NCBI GenBank assembly: GCA_028534125.1 | Contig: CM052816.1 | Coordinates: 50,470,001 to 50,534,000 of the forward strand | Direction: 5' to 3' | Source: Lama glama | Lineage: Eukaryota | DNA length: 64,000 bases | In this document: positions 17,518 to 63,046 of the stretch, in pieces | How the letters are laid out: each line of letters opens with the position of its first letter | Numbering within the stretch: position 1 is the stretch's first letter | Notes under the pieces: model-generated | What the model was told of the DNA's origin: nothing | What the model saw: only the letters and a program-made list of their open reading frames with translations | Databases searched by the model: none | Made by a program: the position numbers and the translations under genes

Positions 17518-17798
17518 TGTGGTTGCCAAGGGAGTTGGGGGTGGGAAGGGATAGACTGGGAGTTCAAAATTTGTAGATACTAACAGGCATATGTAGAATA
17601 GATAAACAAGATAATACTGTATAGCACAGGGAAATATATACAAGATCTTGTGGTAGCTCACAGTGAAAAACATGTAACAATATATGTATGTTCATGAATA
17701 ACTGAAAAATTGTGCTCTACACTGGAATTTGAAACAACATTGTAAAGTGACTATAACTCAATAAAAAAATGTTTAAAAAAAAAAAGAAAAAGAAAAAA
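17518..17798 (+). mobile_element. Young L1 3' UTR with A tail
   Basis: GTGGTTGCCAAGGG...GGGTGGGAAGGGATAGACTGGGAG...CTCAATAAAAAAATGTTTAAAAA; near-identical to 18367-18631. Confidence 0.88.
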
Positions 17799-18631
17799 AC
17801 AAACTCAATCCAAAAATGGGCAGAAGACTTAAACAAGCAATTCTCCAAGGAAGAAATACAAGTGATCAATAGGCACATGAAAAAATGCTCAATATCACTA
17901 ATTATCAGAGAAATGCAAATCAAAACTACAATGAGGTATCACCTCACACCAGTCAGAATGGCCATCATTCAAAAGTCCACAAATGACAAATGCTGGAGAG
18001 GCTGTGGAGAAAAGGGAANNNNNNNNNNNNNNNNNNNNNNNNNNNNNNNNNNNNNNNNNNNNNNNNNNNNNNNNNNNNNNNNNNNNNNNNNNNNNNNNNN
18101 NNNNNNNNNNNNNNNNNNTGACTGGATAAAGAAGATGTGGTATATTTATATGACGGAATGCTATTCAGCCATAAAAACCAACAACATAACGCCATTTGCA
18201 GCAACATGGATGCTCCTGGAGAATGTCATTCTAAGTGAAGTAAGCCAGAAAGAGAAAGAAAAATACCATATGAGATCACTCATATGTGGAATCTAAAAAA
18301 AATTAAAAATAAAAAAATAATAAATACAAAACAGAAACAGACTCATAGACATAGAATACAAACTTGTTGGTGCCAAGGGGGAGGGGATGGGAAGGGACAG
18401 ACGAGGAGTTTGAAATTTGTAGATACTGACAGGCATATGTAGAATAGATAAACAAGATTATACTGTATAGCACAGGGAAATATATATAAGACCTTGAGGT
18501 AGTTCACGGTGAAAAAAAATGTGACAATGAATATATGTATGTTCATGTATAACTGAAAAATTGTACTCTACACTGGAATTTGACACAACACTGTAAAATG
18601 ATTATAACTCAATAAAAAATGTTTAAAAAAA
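17799..18631 (+). mobile_element. Young L1 ORF2 C-terminus plus 3' UTR, spanning an assembly gap
   Basis: Open ORF2 peptide [39 protein letters not shown]...PFAATWMLLENVILSEVSQKEKEKYHMRSLICGI. Confidence 0.93.
18019..18118. other. Assembly gap (100 N)
   Basis: Run of exactly 100 N. Confidence 0.99.
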
Positions 18632-18759
18632 TGGGGGGAAGTTTAACACCAGAGAAGCACACTCACTGAATAAATTTCAGTGCAACACTTTAAAATAAGT
18701 AATATCTACACAAAGGGTAATGTCTCTAATATATAAAGAGCTCTTAAAATCTGAAGAAC

Positions 18760-18930
18760 GGGGGGAAGGTATAGCTCAGTGGTAGAGTGTGTGCCTAGCA
18801 TGCACAAGGTCCTTGGTGCAATCCCCAGTACCCACATTAAAAATAAATAAATAAACAAACAAGCAAACCTAATTACCTCCCTACAAAAAAAAATTTTTTA
18901 AAGAACTACCAAAACCAATAAAAAAAAATT
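18760..18930 (+). mobile_element. tRNA-derived SINE (camelid Vic-1-like)
   Basis: GGGGGGAAGGTATAGCTCAGTGGTAGAG (A box), B-box-like GGTGCAATCCC, AAAT tail, CCTAATTACCTCCC, imperfect TSD TTAAAAT..AAGAAC. Confidence 0.85.
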
Positions 18931-24029: not shown

Positions 24030-25097
24030 AGAAACAACAGGGACCTGATAAGGGAAGCAGAAATATTTTACCTCAGGCATATAAAATTAGACCTAAAACA
24101 AATGTTCTGGTCCTCTTTAACAAAGGTTTAAAAGCAGGACCCTAAGGATTATATTGTTTCCAAGTAAACCACCTGTGTCCCAGAACAAAGCACAGGTTTA
24201 TAGAAATACAAACATATGCAGCAGAAACAAGAAAATTCACAATGTTTGGCATCCAAACAAAGATTAATGTACATGCAACATAAAGGGAAAATAGAATACA
24301 GGAATTATGACAGGGCAGAAAAATCTATCAAAACCTATGCCAAAATAATACAGATTATAGAATTAATGGACAAGGTCATTAAAAGTTATTAAAATTTTAT
24401 TCCATATATTCAAGGATATAAAAAAGACTGCATATGCTAAAGTGATTTATAGAAGATATTAAATAGATGTAAATCAAACTTTGATGAAAACCACAACATC
24501 TGAGATAAGAAATATACTGAATGGAATTAACAGCATATTAGACATAGAAAAGAAACAATTAATGAATATGAAAGCAGAGCAATAGAAACTATTCAAAATA
24601 AAAAATGGGGAAAATTTTAAAAAGGAAGAAAAAGAGGATAAGTGAGCTATAAGACAAATTCAAGCAACGTAATATACAGGTAACTAGAGGCTCGAAACAG
24701 GGAGGAAGGGTAACAGAAAAACTATTCAAATAATGACCAAAATTGACCAAAAAAATATAAACTAACAGATCAAAGAGGATCAATAAAGAGAAAACTACAT
24801 TAAGGCACATTATAATCAAACTGTTCAAAAGCAGTGATAAAGAGAAAAATCTTAGAAGAAGCTGGAGAAAGAAGGCACATTGCTTAGATAGGAAAAACAT
24901 GACAAGTAGCCAGAATATAGTAGAGCAACATTTTTAAAGTATTCAAAGAAAAATATCGTCAACTTAGAACTTAATACCTGGTGAAAATATCTTTTAAAAA
25001 GAATTATGAAATACAGACTTTTGCAGATACACAAAACCTGACAGAATTCATCACAAGCAGACCTGCATGAAAAGAAACATTAAAAGAAGTCCCTCTG
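24030..25097 (+). mobile_element. Old L1 ORF1 remnant hosting the cTAGE retrocopy (resumes after 26653)
   Basis: ORF1-like text (AGCAATAGAAACTATTCAAAAT, TCAACTTAGAAC, GAATTCATCACAAGCAGACCTGCA). Confidence 0.7.
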
Positions 25098-26637
25098 TAC
25101 ACAGATAAAAAACAAAAAGAAAGGTAAGAAAAAATTACCATTAGACAATAATGGAGAAAATGACATTTCAGTTACAACCCTCTCCTCTAACAACATCCCC
25201 TCCTCCCCACCAATTCTGACCAGATAACTGACCAATCCAGGATGTCAGCTGCTGGTTGGGTTCCAGGTAGAATGTTGGGGTATCCCCTGGGGCTTGTTGT
25301 GGCTGGTGGGTCCACGGTAACTGGGCAGAGCTCTGTGGTGGATCAGTGCCATGGAGGGGCTGCTCTCCTCTGTGGAGCTTGGCTTTGGGCTGATCCTTAG
25401 GAAGTTGAGTGTGGTCCTGGTTTTGTTGCTGCCCAATGGCCTGTGTACTCAGTTCATGTTCCAGAGCCTCCACTGGGAGACAGTGTTGAGTCTGCTTGTC
25501 CTCAGCTTATTGATGGGTGTCTTATTTACTTTCAGACTTATTCAGTCTGTTAGAAGTCAATTTAATAGAAGACATGAAAAGCAACTGGCAAAAACACTGG
25601 ATGCACAGATTGAGGAGAAATGCCACCTCACTGACAAGCTTTGTGTGGCTAAAAAGGAGACAACTTTAAAGAATGCCAGGCTAGAGAAGAAGCCAGCAAA
25701 TATACCCAGCCTCACTGACACCTACAGAAAGTTGATGACGGTCAACCTGAGTTCAAGGAAGGAAATCAAATTTCTCATCCAAGAACTGAAGAAAGAGAGA
25801 TCCCTACATACAAGAAGAGATGGAGGAGATGCTAAAAGTGCTCAAGTTCCTGGAAGAGGTCATGACAATCAGCACATCACAAGGGGCTTTTACAAACCAG
25901 CCAGGGGACCAAGCACCAAGTCCTGATGATCCCTTTCCCAGGAGTGGGCCCTCATATTAAAGCTGTGCTGTTCCCTCCCCTCCACTCAGGCCTCCCAAAC
26001 GGCCAGGCTGCATTCACTCACTCAATTAGATCTTCACCTGAGCTGCACTGAGGCCAGTGGATGGAGGGAAATTGCCTCCTTTGGACCAGAGTTCCTCCAA
26101 CTTTACAAGTGAGCACAGCAGTGAACTCCTTCATGGCCAACATCTCTCATCTAAAATATATTGGAATTCCCAGAACACAGCACGAAGCATGGGACTTATT
26201 TTATATTCAGAAAATGTTTGGATTATCTTTTATTAGTTGTGAAAGAAATGTTGTAATTGAGACTGATCTTCTATTTAGTTTGAATCTATATTACGCCTCA
26301 TTTCTCAAGACATTTTGGGTAACTATTATACATCAGCAATGTAAGTGAAGTATATATATAATTATTCTGTGTACAAATATTGCATTATAAATGTAAAATG
26401 TATGCAATTTGTCAATATAAACTTTTAGATGGCCATAGCATTTATTTCTAGAATTTAATTCTGATGTCATAAGTTTAAGTCAAAGAGCCTTTTTTTACCT
26501 GAGTATGTATAATTTTAAAAATAGATGAACTTTTTAAAGATGAAGTTAAATTGTACTCTTAGAAGAAATTTTTCTCATTTAATTTTTATATTCTGTTATA
26601 GCAATATCCATAATAAAAAAAATTTGATAAATTAAAA
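25098..26637 (+). pseudogene. Processed retrocopy of a cTAGE5/MIA2-family gene (ORF 25351-25926, probable frameshift near 25810)
   Basis: Intronless ORF with cTAGE-like motifs (GLIL..L, LP.G, WE.V, hydrophobic TM, SVRS, EK.LA..L...IEEK, ELK.E.S.H). AATAAA at 26612-26617, short A tail, and TSD AAAAGAAGTCCCTCTG at 25082-25097 and 26638-26653. Confidence 0.85.
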
Positions 26638-27379
26638 AAAAGAAGTCCCTCTGACAGAAAATAAATAATATTATACAGAAATCTGTATCTACAAAGAATA
26701 ATGAATCACTCCAGAACAGGTAACTTTGTGGGTAAATATAAAAGACTTAAAAAAAAAAATAAAATCACTTAAAAGACAACTCAGAATTCTGATTCTGGGT
26801 AAGATGGAGATAGTTCATTACTTCTATTACTCTCACTAATTACAACCAAAAATCCCGACACTTAAAGCAACTATTAAAAAGATTCCTTAAGGTGGAGAAA
26901 AGAAAGCATATTTAAAAGGAATCTTGGAACTTGAGGGAAGATTTGGCAGAGTTCGCTGATTGGTTTTGTTTTGTTGCCTTTTATACATCCAACCTGGATA
27001 TTAAAGAAGTCTGAAACACGACAACAACAGTGCGTACAAATAAACAAAAAGAAAAGCCACTTCCGTCTGGCTATAGGAAGCAGAAAAGGGTTAACCAGCA
27101 CAGAAGCCTTTTGCCTAAAACTCTTCCCTTCCCCTCTCAGTTCAGGCAAAGAATCCAGAAGGAGCTACACTTATCCTCATTCTGATCCCCATCTTATACG
27201 AAAGACAGGAGACTAAAGGTGGAGCCTAGTCTACTATCCTCACCCTGAACTCATGAGGTTCCTTCCTCTCCCAACTTGGTGCTGTGGACACAGAAATTGT
27301 GGGCAGAGACTTATTATCCATGCATTCTCATCCTCTCCCTCAAGTGGCACTCTTCTCCCCACTACCACAGACATACACC

Positions 27380-30300
27380 ATGATCAAGTAGATCATTCCA
27401 GGAATGCAAGGCAAAAATCTCAATCTTTGTAATCAACCATATTAACAGTCTAAAAAAGGATACTCATATGACCACATCAATTGATGCAGAAAAAGCATTT
27501 AAGGCAATTCAATACCTATTCACAATAAAACCAATCATCCAACTAAGAATAGAAAGAAATTTCTATAACTTGATAAAGAGCATATGAAAAATAAACTACA
27601 GCTAAGAGCATATGTAATGATGACAGACTGAATGTTTTCCCCCTAAAATGGGACATAAGGCAAAGATTTCTGTTCTTACCACTAAAATTCCACATAGTAG
27701 TTTCATGTCCTAGCCAGTAAAATAAGGAAAAGAGAGGAGATAAAAGGCATAAAGACTGAAAATAAATAAAACTATTCTTACTGGCAGATAACATTACTGT
27801 ATACATAAAAGATCCCAAGGAATCTATACAAATACAAAAAACAACAACAAACCACCCTGGGACAAATAAGGGAATTTAGCAAGGTTGGGGATTACAAGGT
27901 CAACACACAAACACATACACACAAACCCTGTATTTTTATATACTAGTAAAGAACTATTGGAAACTCAAATTAAAAAACAAAACCATTAGTATTAACTTTC
28001 CAAAGACTGAAATACCTACTGATAAATCTAACGAAACATGTGCAGAAATTCTGTGCTAAACACTACAAAATGCTCATGAAAGATATCAAAGAAAAACTAA
28101 GAAACATACTATGTTCATGGATTAGAAGACTCAATTGGGGCTTTTTTTTGTATATAAAACTGATTTTAAAATGTATTTGGAAAGGTAAAGTAGCTAAATG
28201 ATCTAAAACAACATTAAAAAAAAGAATAAAGTTGGAAGAATTACACAACCCAATTTTAAGACTTATAATGTAGCTACAGTAATTAAGACAGTGCAGTATT
28301 GGTAGAGGGATAGAGGATAAATTCATGAAACAGAATACAGAGCCCAGAAATAGACCCACACAAATATAGCCAATGACTTTTAATAAAGGTACAAAAGCAA
28401 TTCAATGGAAAAAGAAGAGTCTTTTCAACTACTGGTTAGTTCAACTAGACATTCATATCCAAGAAAATGAACTTCAACCTACACAAAAATTAACTAAAAA
28501 TAGATCATAGACTTATGAAGCCAGCAGCTGCTTCTGGCTCTGAAAATCAAAAATGCCTTTACACATTGCCAAAGGTCCCTGGAAAAGCAAAACCTCCTCC
28601 AGTTGAGAACCCAGTTGACTTAGGGACCTAAATAATTGAAGAGCTGTATCTTGGTCGTAGGTCAGAAGACTCAATACTGTCAATTCTATAGGTCCAATGC
28701 ATTCAGCAGACTTATTTGTAAAAAACTGACAAACTGATTCTAAACATCACCAGACAATCTGAAATATAGAGAATATCCAGAACAACTTTGAAAAAGAACA
28801 AAGTTGAAGGACTTACATTATCCAATTTCAAATTTTATTATAAATCTAAGTTATTAAGACAGTCTGAGATTGGCACAGAGATAAGTAAACAGATCAACAG
28901 AACAAAACAGAGTCCAGGTATAGACTTATATGTATCTAGTCAAGGGATTTTTAACAGAACTCAAGAAAATTCAGTGGAGAATTCACCAAAGGATTCTAGA
29001 ACAGCTGAATATCAATATGCAAAAAAATGAATTTCAATCCACATCTTGCAGTATATACCAAAATTAACACAAAATGTGTCACAGACTCTAAATATAAAAC
29101 CTAAAACTATAAAACTCATATGTGAAAGCTTAGGAGAAAATCTCTGTGATTTTAGACTAGGCAGAAATTTACCAGATATGACACTAAAAGCATGATTGAT
29201 AAATAAAAAATATTGGACTCCCTGAAAATTAAGAATTTCTCCTCTACTCCCACAAATAGAGGAGTAATCGTATATCTGTTAATGACTTAGTGTGCAGAAT
29301 ATGTAAAAACCTCTTCGAAATTCAATAAGGAAACAAGTGACCCAATTAAAAATATGTAAAGGAACCAAACAAACATATCATTAAAGAAAACATATTGATG
29401 GCAAATGTCATCATTAGACATTAGGGAAATGCAAATTTAAAATACAATGAAATACTAATACACAGCCACTAGACTATTTAAAATTTAAATAATAGGTGTT
29501 GACATGGATATGAAGGAACTGAAATTCTCATCTGTGGCTGGTGGAAATGGAAAATACTATGGCCACTGTGGAAAACTGTTCATTGGTTTTTTAAAAAATT
29601 AAATGTTCACCAATCATTTAAGCCACCTATTCTACTCCTATGCATTATCCAAAAGAATAAAACATATTTGTATACAATGACTTGTATACAAATATTCATG
29701 GCTGCTTATCTGTTACAGTCCAAAACTGGAAACAACTCAAATGTCCATCAACAGATGAATGCATAAATATATCAGGGCATGTTCATAAAACAGAATATTT
29801 ACTCAGTTGTAAAAAAAGAAAAAAGGAATAAATTAATGAATCACACAACAACCTGGAGGAATCTCAAAATAGTTGTGCTGAATGAAAAAGGCCAGACTCC
29901 CTCCCCTCAAAAAGCACCTACTATAGGATTATATTTACATAAAACTCTAGAAAACATAAAATAATTTAGTGAAAAGGAAGCTGATACGGAGTTGTCTGGG
30001 GATTAAATAGAGAGGTACAGAAGACTGGGAAACAAGATTACAAAGGTATACAAAACAAATTGGTGGGGAATGAGGATTTGTTCATTATCTTGATTGTGGC
30101 AACAGTTTCATGGGTATGCACACATTTTAAAATTTATCAAATTGTACACTTTCAATATGCACATTATATCTCAATAAAGCTATTTTTAATAAACCCACAA
30201 AAAGATTTATACATGAATGTATATTCATATACAATTTATATATATGTATATACTGCTTTATTAATTTCCACAACTGAAAACCATCCACATACAATGAAAA

Positions 30301-62911: not shown

Positions 62912-63046
62912 TAACTTTTTTATTGGGAGGGGTGGGAATTAGGTTTGTTTATTTATTTTTTTTTTTTTAATCGAGGCACAGGGGTTGAACCCAGGACCCT
63001 GTGCATGCGAAGCACACACTCTACCACTAAGTTATACCCTCCCCCC
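62912..63046 (-). mobile_element. tRNA-derived SINE (camelid Vic-1-like)
   Basis: Reverse complement of the SINE head (CTCTACCACTAAGTTATACCCTCCCCCC); perfect 16-bp TSD TCTATGGGTAACTTAA at 62896-62911 and 63048-63063. Confidence 0.9.

Follow-up and report, generated by a model that had tools for sequence, protein, structure and literature searches.

cTAGE5/MIA2 is described as a scaffold of ER exit sites (PMC4164946, PMC4927275, PMC5007089). Its Sec12-binding site covers residues 61-115, with E75/K76, K89 and S97 being critical (PMC4927275), and the accounts of the protein assign TANGO1 binding to coil 2 (residues 301-650) and Sec23 binding to the C-terminal proline-rich domain (651-804). Primate CTAGE retrogenes are intronless cTAGE5 derivatives that spread by retroposition, and PMC2394760 presents them as primate-specific and intact relative to the parental ORF. 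HAL1 half-L1 elements are non-autonomous, are mobilized by L1 and carry a target-site duplication (TSD) and an A tail (PMC5753468), and the D4Z4/DUX4 and DUXC arrays consist of multi-kb tandem monomers containing a retrogene (PMC13558733). The alpaca satellites VpaSat08-5290, VpaSat09-5280, VpaSat11-5308 and VpaSat12-5280, with monomers of ~5.3 kb (5.28-5.31 kb), map to short arms in 16-20 chromosome pairs and constitute the most widespread camelid satellite family (PMC13751797, November 2026). The main text of that paper describes them without a gene origin, and the terms CTAGE, MIA2 and retro occur in it zero times.

Here we relate these systems to an insertion within a 64-kb stretch of Lama glama DNA (the window). 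Our reading comprises three layers: a dead copy made by the L1 machinery, a boreoeutherian family of short cTAGE5 paralogues (mini-cTAGE) from which it derives, and the amplification of this family in camelids, including its presence in a satellite. We assign the three layers jointly a probability of roughly 0.8.

The L1-type insert is 1,540 bp long and occupies positions 25098-26637 on the plus strand (Table 1). The two TSD copies are identical at 16/16 positions, a length inside the 7-20 bp range of target-primed reverse transcription, and this 16-mer has only two occurrences in the window. A TT/AAAA site and a poly(A) signal with A tail preceding the 3' TSD accompany it. The TSD, the AATAAA signal and the Kozak start GCCATGG (25348-25354) had been reported in an earlier sequence-only reading and are confirmed here; the A tail reported along with them is present, with just 4 A lying outside the TSD. 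The filled 3' junction occurs in both DNA runs, and no empty allele was found among 13 joints in contigs of the sequencing runs. Paralogue pieces, which are short (125-346 nt), align without intron-like joints.

Across the insert, ORF1 of an old host L1 picks up again, with Pfam matches upstream to PF17490 (E 4e-5, 24975-25067) and PF02994 (E 0.007, 24761-24934). This upstream ORF1 was considered as part of the mobile unit and ruled out by single-copy depth over 24900-25097. The insert lies downstream of and antisense to the first two coding exons of XRCC4, and the next exon was not found within the window. This setting fits the earlier placement in XRCC4 intron 3. Rfam and TRF added nothing at the insert locus. 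The locus is a dead copy produced by L1 target-primed reverse transcription from an RNA ending in the mini-cTAGE 3' UTR. Taken alone, the copy is an ordinary dead insertion.

Table 1. Features of the insert and its surroundings (positions in the window)
Feature	Position	Strand	Basis and remarks
Host old L1, ORF1 C-terminal part, upstream of insertion, outside repeated unit	24761-25081	+	Pfam; single-copy depth
L1 endonuclease site TT/AAAA (TT precedes 5' TSD copy)	25080-25085	+	sequence
5' TSD, 16 bp	25082-25097	+	sequence
Insert 5' part, family 5' region	25098-25350	+	tblastn; depth 41-62 x unique at 25098-25229
Mini-cTAGE ORF, N part	25351-25804	+	Kozak start, N-terminal hydrophobic helix, TM at residues 46-64, predicted Sec12-binding half of coil 1
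Stretch bracketed by published VpaSat08 primers	25372-25958	+	587 bp in window vs 603 bp in satellite
5-codon deletion relative to family, in coil	25654-25659	+	alignment; paralogue contigs start with loose letters before 25656
Frameshift, insert 5 nt shorter here than intact camel-type members	25805-25807	+	alignment to family
Family C-terminus, out of frame in insert	25811-25960	+	68% identity to P0007 residues 165-211; family stop 25958-25960
Stretch collinear with first 400 nt of VpaSat09-5280 monomer	25895-26299	-	shared words, hand alignment
3' UTR	25961-26637	+	vestigial cTAGE5 codons to ~26143; AATAAA 26612-26617; tail 26634-26637
3' TSD, 16 bp	26638-26653	+	sequence; contigs of runs X1 and X3 span junction mismatch-free
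Host old L1 continues (ORF1 end, decayed ORF2 pieces)	26654-29800 (right end approximate)	+	nhmmer matches to other window L1 pieces; translation
XRCC4 first two coding exons	~42548-42410, 36360-36190	-	PF06632, E 1.5e-7 and 1.2e-11

The reading frame of the insert holds ~152 uninterrupted cTAGE-like codons from 25351, with 32% identity to pika cTAGE5 residues 13-159 (E 4e-18), in line with the ~153 codons and one-third match estimated earlier. Beyond the frameshift, 39 foreign residues lead to a stop at 25924-25926, and the frame is hence not open to the family stop. The insert is ~88% identical to long paralogue pieces. At 35 of the 40 listed differences (of 466 in total), the window is opposed by at least 80% of the paralogue depth in both DNA runs, which gives at least 35 private substitutions. 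The eight ORF sites of this kind comprise 6 replacement and 2 silent changes, a small count drawn from the 40 of 466 difference rows with 2 satellite-dominated sites left out. The copy is therefore old and broken, and not young-looking as had been proposed. It had also been argued that a pristine TSD is hard to reconcile with decay in place. The computed probability of a perfect 16-bp TSD is 0.13-0.44 at 12-5% divergence, which is likely enough that the TSD offers no proof of youth. With an assumed substitution rate, the insertion would date to roughly 10-40 million years ago.

A protein search (103 candidates), biased toward long ORFs, recovered a family of 23 short paralogues of 117-251 aa, 50-71% identical, which databases label as hypothetical, 'MIA2-like' or 'cTAGE9-like'. 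Members occur in camels, ruminants, pig, donkey, a bat, a ground squirrel and a tree shrew. In the tree, the insert groups with camel sequences (100/99) inside a single mini-cTAGE clade (100/100), which departs from cTAGE5 on a long stem branch; the insert also shares the internal deletion of the family. The members in donkey, bat, ground squirrel and tree shrew mean that the family is specific neither to camelids nor to artiodactyls; the camelid or artiodactyl family suggested earlier thus stands with regard to its expansion in camelids and not with regard to its range. The family predates the primate CTAGE retrogenes by far. Sequence comparison indicates that a parent gene exists, an unnamed mini-cTAGE of ~205 predicted residues, which is boreoeutherian and not camelid-specific. 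Before the boreoeutherian radiation, a cTAGE5 copy would have dropped ~320 internal codons, with residues ~165-190 joined to ~480-510, and acquired an early stop. The outcome would be a ~205-aa ER membrane protein that keeps the Sec12-binding segment, while the TANGO1-binding coil 2 is gone almost entirely and the Sec23-binding proline-rich domain is gone as well.

Pfam gave no cTAGE model on the ORF or on full cTAGE5, with weak unrelated hits only, and a PDB search by sequence returned three weak coiled-coil-type matches (E 0.36-0.74). The one metagenome candidate among 150 stretches to pass (L001) proved to be an unrelated eukaryotic gene with introns whose match spans 33 residues, and was rejected.

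Similarity of the family to cTAGE5 is highest in the predicted Sec12-binding segment, where region 61-97 is 48% identical to cTAGE5, as compared to 27-35% in other segments. Among the 23 members, E75 is retained in 22, K76 in 17, K89 in 22 and S97 in 4. Equivalents of E75 and K89 are also found in the TANGO1-like protein P0254, so their retention may reflect the coiled coil alone. The insert itself, judged from its sequence, has the TM and coil 1 with the Sec12 segment (S97 changed), codes for a short piece around residues 480-530, and is otherwise devoid of coil 2 and the C-terminal proline-rich domain. An AlphaFold model of the family alignment displays three helices (pLDDT 53.7, pTM 0.20) and is too weak for a fold search; the predicted complex of cTAGE5 36-200 with mini-cTAGE 36-185 scores 0.03 and gives no answer. 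The most likely role of intact members, which we propose tentatively, might be that of an ER-anchored Sec12 binder competing with or modulating cTAGE5 at ER exit sites. Its action would probably take place in germ cells, because mini-cTAGE RNA retroposes. Family contigs are numerous in RNA runs X15 and X16 (X15 being RNA by guess, and neither being labelled testis), where the depth profile differs from that of the DNA runs; we do not count them as evidence of expression. Such Sec12-binding-only anatomy would be a natural counterpart of the separation-of-function constructs employed in ER-exit-site work.

The family has been amplified in camelids. Summed contig depth rises exactly at the insert edges, with a median of 154 times the unique flank in one DNA run and 132 times in the other, 1295 and 898 contigs aligned to the insert and peaks of 8062 x and 9001 x unique. 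Summed contig depth is not equal to copy number; the depth data suggest on the order of 100 dispersed camelid copies.

The link to the VpaSat satellites emerges from a comparison over the first 400 of 5,280 nt of the monomers, aligned by hand. Three minus-strand words of the window (11, 12 and 21 nt) recur collinearly in VpaSat09, the only one of the 14 monomer starts to contain them, the chance probability of the 21-mer match being ~4e-6. The letter beside the 21-mer is the variant at 25992, with depths of 79084/85197 (X1) and 25015/25884 (X3). VpaSat09 nt 8-106 match window 26299-26201 at 68/99 positions in an ungapped alignment made by hand. The forward VpaSat08 primer matches the window once, at codon 8 of the ORF (17/20; 0 in 100 shuffles). 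The reverse primer falls at the family stop with 12/20 matches, a score that 44 window sites reach on their own, and counts only via the collinear alignment. The 603-bp VpaSat08 product compares with 607 bp expected for an intact camel-type ORF. A by-eye match between the VpaSat08 start and the insert 3' end was AT-rich and unconvincing, and was dropped. Three loose-end words from the 5' peak gave 0/3 matches in the visible 400-nt monomer starts. The internal deletion, the likely carrier element and the satellite link had all gone unnoticed in the sequence-only reading.

VpaSat08 and VpaSat09 are thus multi-kb tandem monomers with gene-derived sequence, and by these alignments the satellite almost certainly contains mini-cTAGE sequence, homologous to both ORF and 3' UTR of the insert. 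Unlike the satellite, the insert is a single dispersed copy with TSD and shows ~69% identity to VpaSat09 over the UTR positions that were counted, which makes it a cousin rather than an escaped monomer. In VpaSat09, the C-terminal part reads as 37 open codons by hand, with 12/23 residues as in the window. Loose ends behind 25385 are in frame, yet the 603 bp between the VpaSat08 primers are not 3n+1, which points to a frameshifted VpaSat08 consensus. Coding monomers in the satellite appear unlikely. For camelid assemblies and FISH, the VpaSat08 probe covers the part homologous to the ORF and can be expected to hybridize to dispersed copies as well.

The origin of the copy and of its ORF can be explained in other ways. 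Decay in place of an MIA2/cTAGE5 retrocopy would account for the 32% identity to cTAGE5 and for the cTAGE5 vestige in the 3' UTR, where squirrel MIA2-like residues 482-579 match 25811-26143 (tblastn, E 5e-4). The probability of this origin is negligible, since the N part is 53-68% identical to short proteins of other mammals and the AU test rejects grouping of the insert with cTAGE5 orthologues (p-AU 0.0002); the earlier proposal of a short cTAGE paralogue as the source is borne out by these results together with the 23 short relatives and the 100/100 clade. Very improbable, too, is a young or still functional retrogene whose 191-aa product would have a new C-terminus. The perfect TSD, the strong Kozak start, the 191 open codons and the retained equivalents of E75/K76/K89 would agree with it, and P0005, another expressed-looking member, terminates in the same alternative frame. 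However, P0005 carries two additional residues at the shift, which marks its frameshift as a separate event, and the private substitutions, the 6:2 ratio of replacement to silent changes, the 5-codon coil deletion and the 4-A tail speak against youth, as do the 8 longest listed pieces of RNA run X16, which are only 81-91% identical to the copy. A functional gene might also be absent altogether: the ORF could be a passenger carried by a non-autonomous retroelement that was already active in early boreoeutherians, with intact ORFs surviving by chance among its many copies. Many short matches of the wider protein search are frameshifted fragments, the proteins diverge nearly neutrally (50-65% between ungulate orders), the C-terminal endings of ruminant and pig members differ, and 21 of the 30 clusters looked up are nameless, with no annotated function among them. 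Against this, ORFs of 199-211 aa occur in several lineages with a common stop (9 of 23 hits; also P0114, P0122 and P0113), the Sec12 site is the stretch closest to cTAGE5, and the tree tracks species relationships, with the pig group, ruminants and camelids inside an artiodactyl clade (100/99). We regard the passenger explanation as unlikely and a functional mini-cTAGE gene, on the sequence evidence, as likely.

The route of the camelid amplification is a matter of similar weighing. The gene probably spread inside a half-L1-type carrier element, of which the insert would be a 5'-truncated copy, and one related copy would then have been amplified in tandem to give the ~5.3-kb VpaSat08/09/11/12 satellite. 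Depth is high over the whole unit and lowest at its 5' end, as truncation predicts. Alternatively, the insert may be a full-length retrocopy of a mini-cTAGE mRNA starting near 25098, with no half-L1 carrier at the locus and with the satellite arising from tandem duplication of the genomic gene locus with its flanks. No L1-like part of the HAL1 type (L1 5' UTR and ORF1) was found inside the 1.54-kb insert, the sequence from ~25124 on is homologous to sequence upstream of family transcripts in other mammals (tblastn, spurious N-extensions of P0175, P0025, P0095 and P0020), and depth stays at 40-60 x up to the very 5' end; given the depth minimum there, we still consider a full-length retrocopy somewhat unlikely. 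That the satellite monomer represents the whole carrier element is, on balance, the better guess. No L1 5' UTR was recognized within the window for comparison with the satellite. It is a long shot that tandem copies of an entire half-L1 retrotransposon carrying mini-cTAGE make up the main short-arm satellite throughout living camelids, numbering in the thousands (tens of Mb) and including monomers with an open germline-expressed frame for a Sec12-binding ER protein. If true, this would be a D4Z4/DUX4-like coding macrosatellite at genome-wide scale.

Literature on CTAGE retrocopies, HAL1, macrosatellites and camelid satellites yielded no account of the family or of the satellite link, with Repbase/Dfam and subscription journals outside the scope and a Repbase entry possible; a term search in PMC6675863, PMC7830431 and PMC6726744 returned no CTAGE link. 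Neither the boreoeutherian short cTAGE5 paralogue nor the derivation of the most widespread satellite family of camelids appears to have been described before. The path from housekeeping gene to retrogene, mobile element and chromosome-arm heterochromatin would be a rare traceable case of the birth of a large satellite.

Mini-cTAGE shares with cTAGE5/MIA2 the N-terminal hydrophobic helix, the TM, the first half of coil 1 and a piece of the coil 2 end. It differs in length (~205 versus ~800 aa), in its ~32% identity, in its long stem branch, in the loss of S97 and in the near-complete absence of coil 2 and the proline-rich domain. Like the primate CTAGE retrogenes, it is an apparently intronless cTAGE5 derivative spread by retroposition; unlike them, it carries an internal deletion, has diverged much further, is boreoeutherian and has given rise to secondary copies of its own. 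With HAL1 elements the insert has in common the L1-mobilized, non-autonomous nature, the TSD and the A tail, whereas it has no ORF1 and a host gene forms its 3' part. VpaSat resembles the D4Z4/DUX4 and DUXC arrays in being a multi-kb tandem monomer containing a retrogene. In contrast to D4Z4/DUX4, VpaSat apparently numbers thousands of copies spread over 16-20 chromosome pairs, and its cargo is a membrane-traffic gene, perhaps within a retroelement.

Two identical 16-mers flank the 1,540-bp insert and are found at no other place in the window; TT precedes the 5' copy, giving a TT/AAAA L1 endonuclease site. The 16/16 target-site duplication, the AATAAA and the antisense intronic position in XRCC4 had all been read from the sequence alone, and all hold, the last because the XRCC4 exons lie on the minus strand. 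Of the A tail seen in that reading, four A stand before the 3' duplication and no more lie outside it. Both flanks belong to one old L1, with ORF1 domains upstream (Pfam PF02994, E 0.007; PF17490, E 4e-5) and the end of ORF1 plus a decayed ORF2 downstream. In runs of organisms A and C, contigs span the filled 3' junction with no mismatch. By every testable mark, the XRCC4-intron insert is a processed copy. Elsewhere in the window, a younger-looking L1 3' end with an A-rich tail encloses 100 N, and several elements are probably tRNA-derived SINEs.

Features of the insert and its surroundings in the window
Feature	Position	Strand	Basis or remark
Insert	25098-26637	+	
Kozak ATG of the ORF	25351	+	
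Five codons missing	25656		relative to camel-type members
Five bases missing	25805-25807		relative to camel-type members
Family C-terminus, out of frame in insert	25811-25960	+	
Vestigial cTAGE5 codons in 3' UTR	25811-26143		squirrel MIA2-like 482-579, E 5e-4
AATAAA of insert	26612-26617	+	sequence
XRCC4 coding exons	~42548-42410 and ~36360-36190	-	Pfam-based
Younger-looking L1 3' end	17757-18330		
100 N within that L1	~18000-18120		
tRNA-like match	18765-18836	+	probably head of tRNA-derived SINE
tRNA-like match	62972-63041	-	probably head of tRNA-derived SINE
SINE-like element	~30375-30500		matches element at 18754-18882

The ORF comprises 191 codons, of which the first ~152 are cTAGE-like (32% identity to pika cTAGE5 residues 13-159, E 4e-18), in agreement with the ~153 uninterrupted codons, Kozak start and one-third identity estimated by eye. 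A query with the first 153 codons returned 103 candidates, among them 23 proteins of 117-251 aa with 50-71% identity, nine of which share a C-terminal stop after 199-211 aa. Searched against 1.84 billion representative sequences, a profile of 12 family proteins matched 255 proteins (150 of them listed). Named clusters, 9 of the 30 looked up, come from yak, red deer, pig, donkey, two camels, bat, ground squirrel and tree shrew, with dromedary as a further named species; members are labelled "hypothetical", "uncharacterized", "MIA2 isoform X8-like", "cTAGE family member 9-like" or "cTAGE 8". In a 24-row IQ-TREE, a long branch (100/100) separates the 14 short proteins from the rest, and the insert groups with Camelus ferus P0113 and with P0005 (100/99), nested in an artiodactyl group (100/99). 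A 42-row FastTree agrees; both trees cover the N-terminal 150-160 residues of a hand-picked subset of the 269 collected proteins. MIA2 is not the nearest relative by tree, as grouping the insert with cTAGE5 is rejected (p-AU 0.000185, 24-row IQ-TREE). The placement indicates that the insert sequence is camelid and that this mini-cTAGE family, judged from its protein sequences, is at least boreoeutherian. The short cTAGE-like parent family proposed by the sequence-only reading exists, as a clade of its own; of the suggested camelid or artiodactyl family, the camelid amplification stands, while the donkey, bat, ground squirrel and tree shrew members reach beyond it. The insert is a copy from an unnamed boreoeutherian mini-cTAGE family that was amplified in camelids, and we consider it highly probable (about 0.95) that this family is present in their major satellite. 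A literature search that covered mainly openly accessible papers, and no repeat databases, gave no account of the short family or of where the satellite came from.

Several collected proteins are composite. The camel models LOC116156032 (P0270, C. dromedarius), LOC141579233 (P0023, C. bactrianus) and LOC116666871 (P0204, C. ferus) are mini-cTAGE copies whose TM region contains the 5' part of a MAPK1/ERK2 retrocopy; residues 93-130 of the dromedary protein match ERK2 (E 3e-6), and its fusion is in frame up to the family C-terminus. In P0113 (EPY73647.1) the first 49 residues are repeated, followed by the 5' region and the whole ORF; it looks spliced across two adjacent copies, which hints at local clusters. 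In the unnamed predicted protein P0117 (1606 aa), three cTAGE5-like units, nearly identical and each with an internal deletion, follow one another head to tail; this is a further case of tandem cTAGE amplification and, on its sequence, falls outside the mini clade. P0271, P0125 and P0215, fused with EF1G or an aminotransferase-fold fragment, are probably neighbouring retrocopies merged by annotation.

Mini-cTAGE retains cTAGE5 residues 1 to ~165-190, resumes at ~480-510 and stops ~25-45 codons on; the vestigial codons in the 3' UTR are matched more weakly by P0147 (E 0.045). In cTAGE5, coil 1 (61-300) is described as binding Sec12, coil 2 (301-650) TANGO1 and the proline-rich domain (651-804) Sec23/24 (PMC4164946, PMC5007089), and Sec12 binding as requiring aa 61-115, with E75/K76, K89 and S97 critical (PMC4927275). 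With two defining domains of cTAGE5 absent, the insert is not cTAGE5 itself. Identity to cTAGE5 reaches 48% in segment 61-97 versus 27-35% in the other five non-overlapping segments, and among 23 members E75 is retained in 22, K76 in 17, K89 in 22 and S97 in 4. Tentatively, mini-cTAGE might be an ER-anchored Sec12 binder without TANGO1 or Sec23 bridging, a competitor or modulator; this is weakened by the frequent absence of S97 and by a TANGO1-like protein that has these E and K residues too.

The copy had been thought young, and its pristine duplication hard to reconcile with decay in place. At 35 of the 40 differences listed, out of 466, at least 80% of the paralogue depth (summed contig depth) departs from the insert in both DNA runs, and private change of the insert, from the listed differences, is at least 2.3%. 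Fourteen long paralogue pieces are 81-91% identical to the insert (mean 88%). Eight such ORF sites among those listed, with two satellite-dominated sites excluded, comprise six replacement and two silent changes, a small count that is the expectation without selection. The insert has drifted towards A+T, with window A against paralogue G at 54-68 and window T against paralogue C at 53-59 places per run, and the reverse at 15-21 and 27-32; its ORF retains a single CpG. With neutral substitution at 1.5-2.2e-9 per site per year, the insertion is about 10-40 million years old, and the computed probability of a perfect 16-mer at such an age is 0.13-0.44, so a perfect duplication does not show youth. 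Youth is not borne out, given the codon loss, the frameshift, at least 35 private differences and ~88% identity to paralogues; the insert is very likely a dead, old copy.

Contigs that match this stretch at 80% likeness number 1295 and 898 in the two DNA runs. The step in summed depth coincides with the insert edges, rising to 41-62x the unique flank at the 5' end and to medians of 154x and 132x over 23 insert bins. Summed depth is no copy number, but such values suggest roughly a hundred copies of the entire unit. Such amplification also explains why the best-matching runs share only 0.39-0.45 of sampled words. Family contigs also occur in X16 (reproductive-system RNA; its eight longest pieces listed are 81-91% identical to the insert) and in X15 (guessed RNA), with DNA carry-over uncontrolled; germline transcription of some member follows from the inherited insertions alone.

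Two positions are far deeper, at ~8,060x and ~9,000x unique (25364) and ~2,230x and ~2,560x (25992). VpaSat08, 09, 11 and 12 form one 5.28-5.31 kb alpaca satellite family in a 2026 catalogue, PCR-positive in all camelids tested, mapped to the short arms in 16-20 chromosome pairs and matching no known satellite (PMC13751797); CTAGE, MIA2 and retro are absent from that paper's main text. For 14 monomers, we compared the opening 400 nt. VpaSat09 contains, in the same order, three minus-strand window words (11, 12 and 21 nt) that no other monomer start holds. By hand alignment, VpaSat09 nt 8-106 matches window 26299-26201 at 68/99 positions, ungapped, and its first 400 nt are collinear to ~25895 with one ~24-nt gap. 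The letter adjoining the 21-mer in VpaSat09 is the variant at 93% and 97% of depth at 25992 in the two runs, which links the ultra-deep contigs to this satellite. The VpaSat08 forward primer has one window match, at ORF codon 8 (17/20; none in 100 shuffles); the reverse primer matches 12/20 at the family stop, non-significant alone, at the same 12-nt spacing from the 21-mer as the near-identical VpaSat09 site. The bracketed product measures 603 bp in the satellite, 587 in the window and 607 in an intact camel-type ORF; 603 is not 3n+1, which argues for a frameshifted VpaSat08 consensus. On the other side, 37 C-terminal codons are open in VpaSat09, and the frame is kept in contig loose ends behind 25385. 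Primers and collinearity together make it highly probable that the monomer contains the mini-cTAGE ORF region and 3' UTR. It is ~69% identical to the insert, more distant than the dispersed paralogues.

The insert itself could be a plain copy of a mini-cTAGE mRNA with no carrier element, as it contains no L1-like part and the L1 upstream is its single-copy host. We nevertheless regard this as rather unlikely, and favour as the probable origin a 5'-truncated copy of a larger half-L1 carrier element. VpaSat08-5290 nt ~200-400 may be L1-like, resembling the 5' end of a mammalian element, and its orientation, going by the primers, is that of the gene; this stretch takes in the VpaSat09 reverse and VpaSat11 forward primers. 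With slightly less assurance, we lean towards the satellite monomer being the whole putative carrier.

The interest lies in the mini-cTAGE family and its satellite link, not in the insert itself. The insert is not one of the primate CTAGE retrogenes as described in PMC2394760, and it may belong with HAL1, in the account of PMC5753468, although these 1.54 kb hold no L1 part. The likeness of the satellite to the D4Z4/DUX macrosatellites, as presented in PMC13558733, is one of gene-bearing build.
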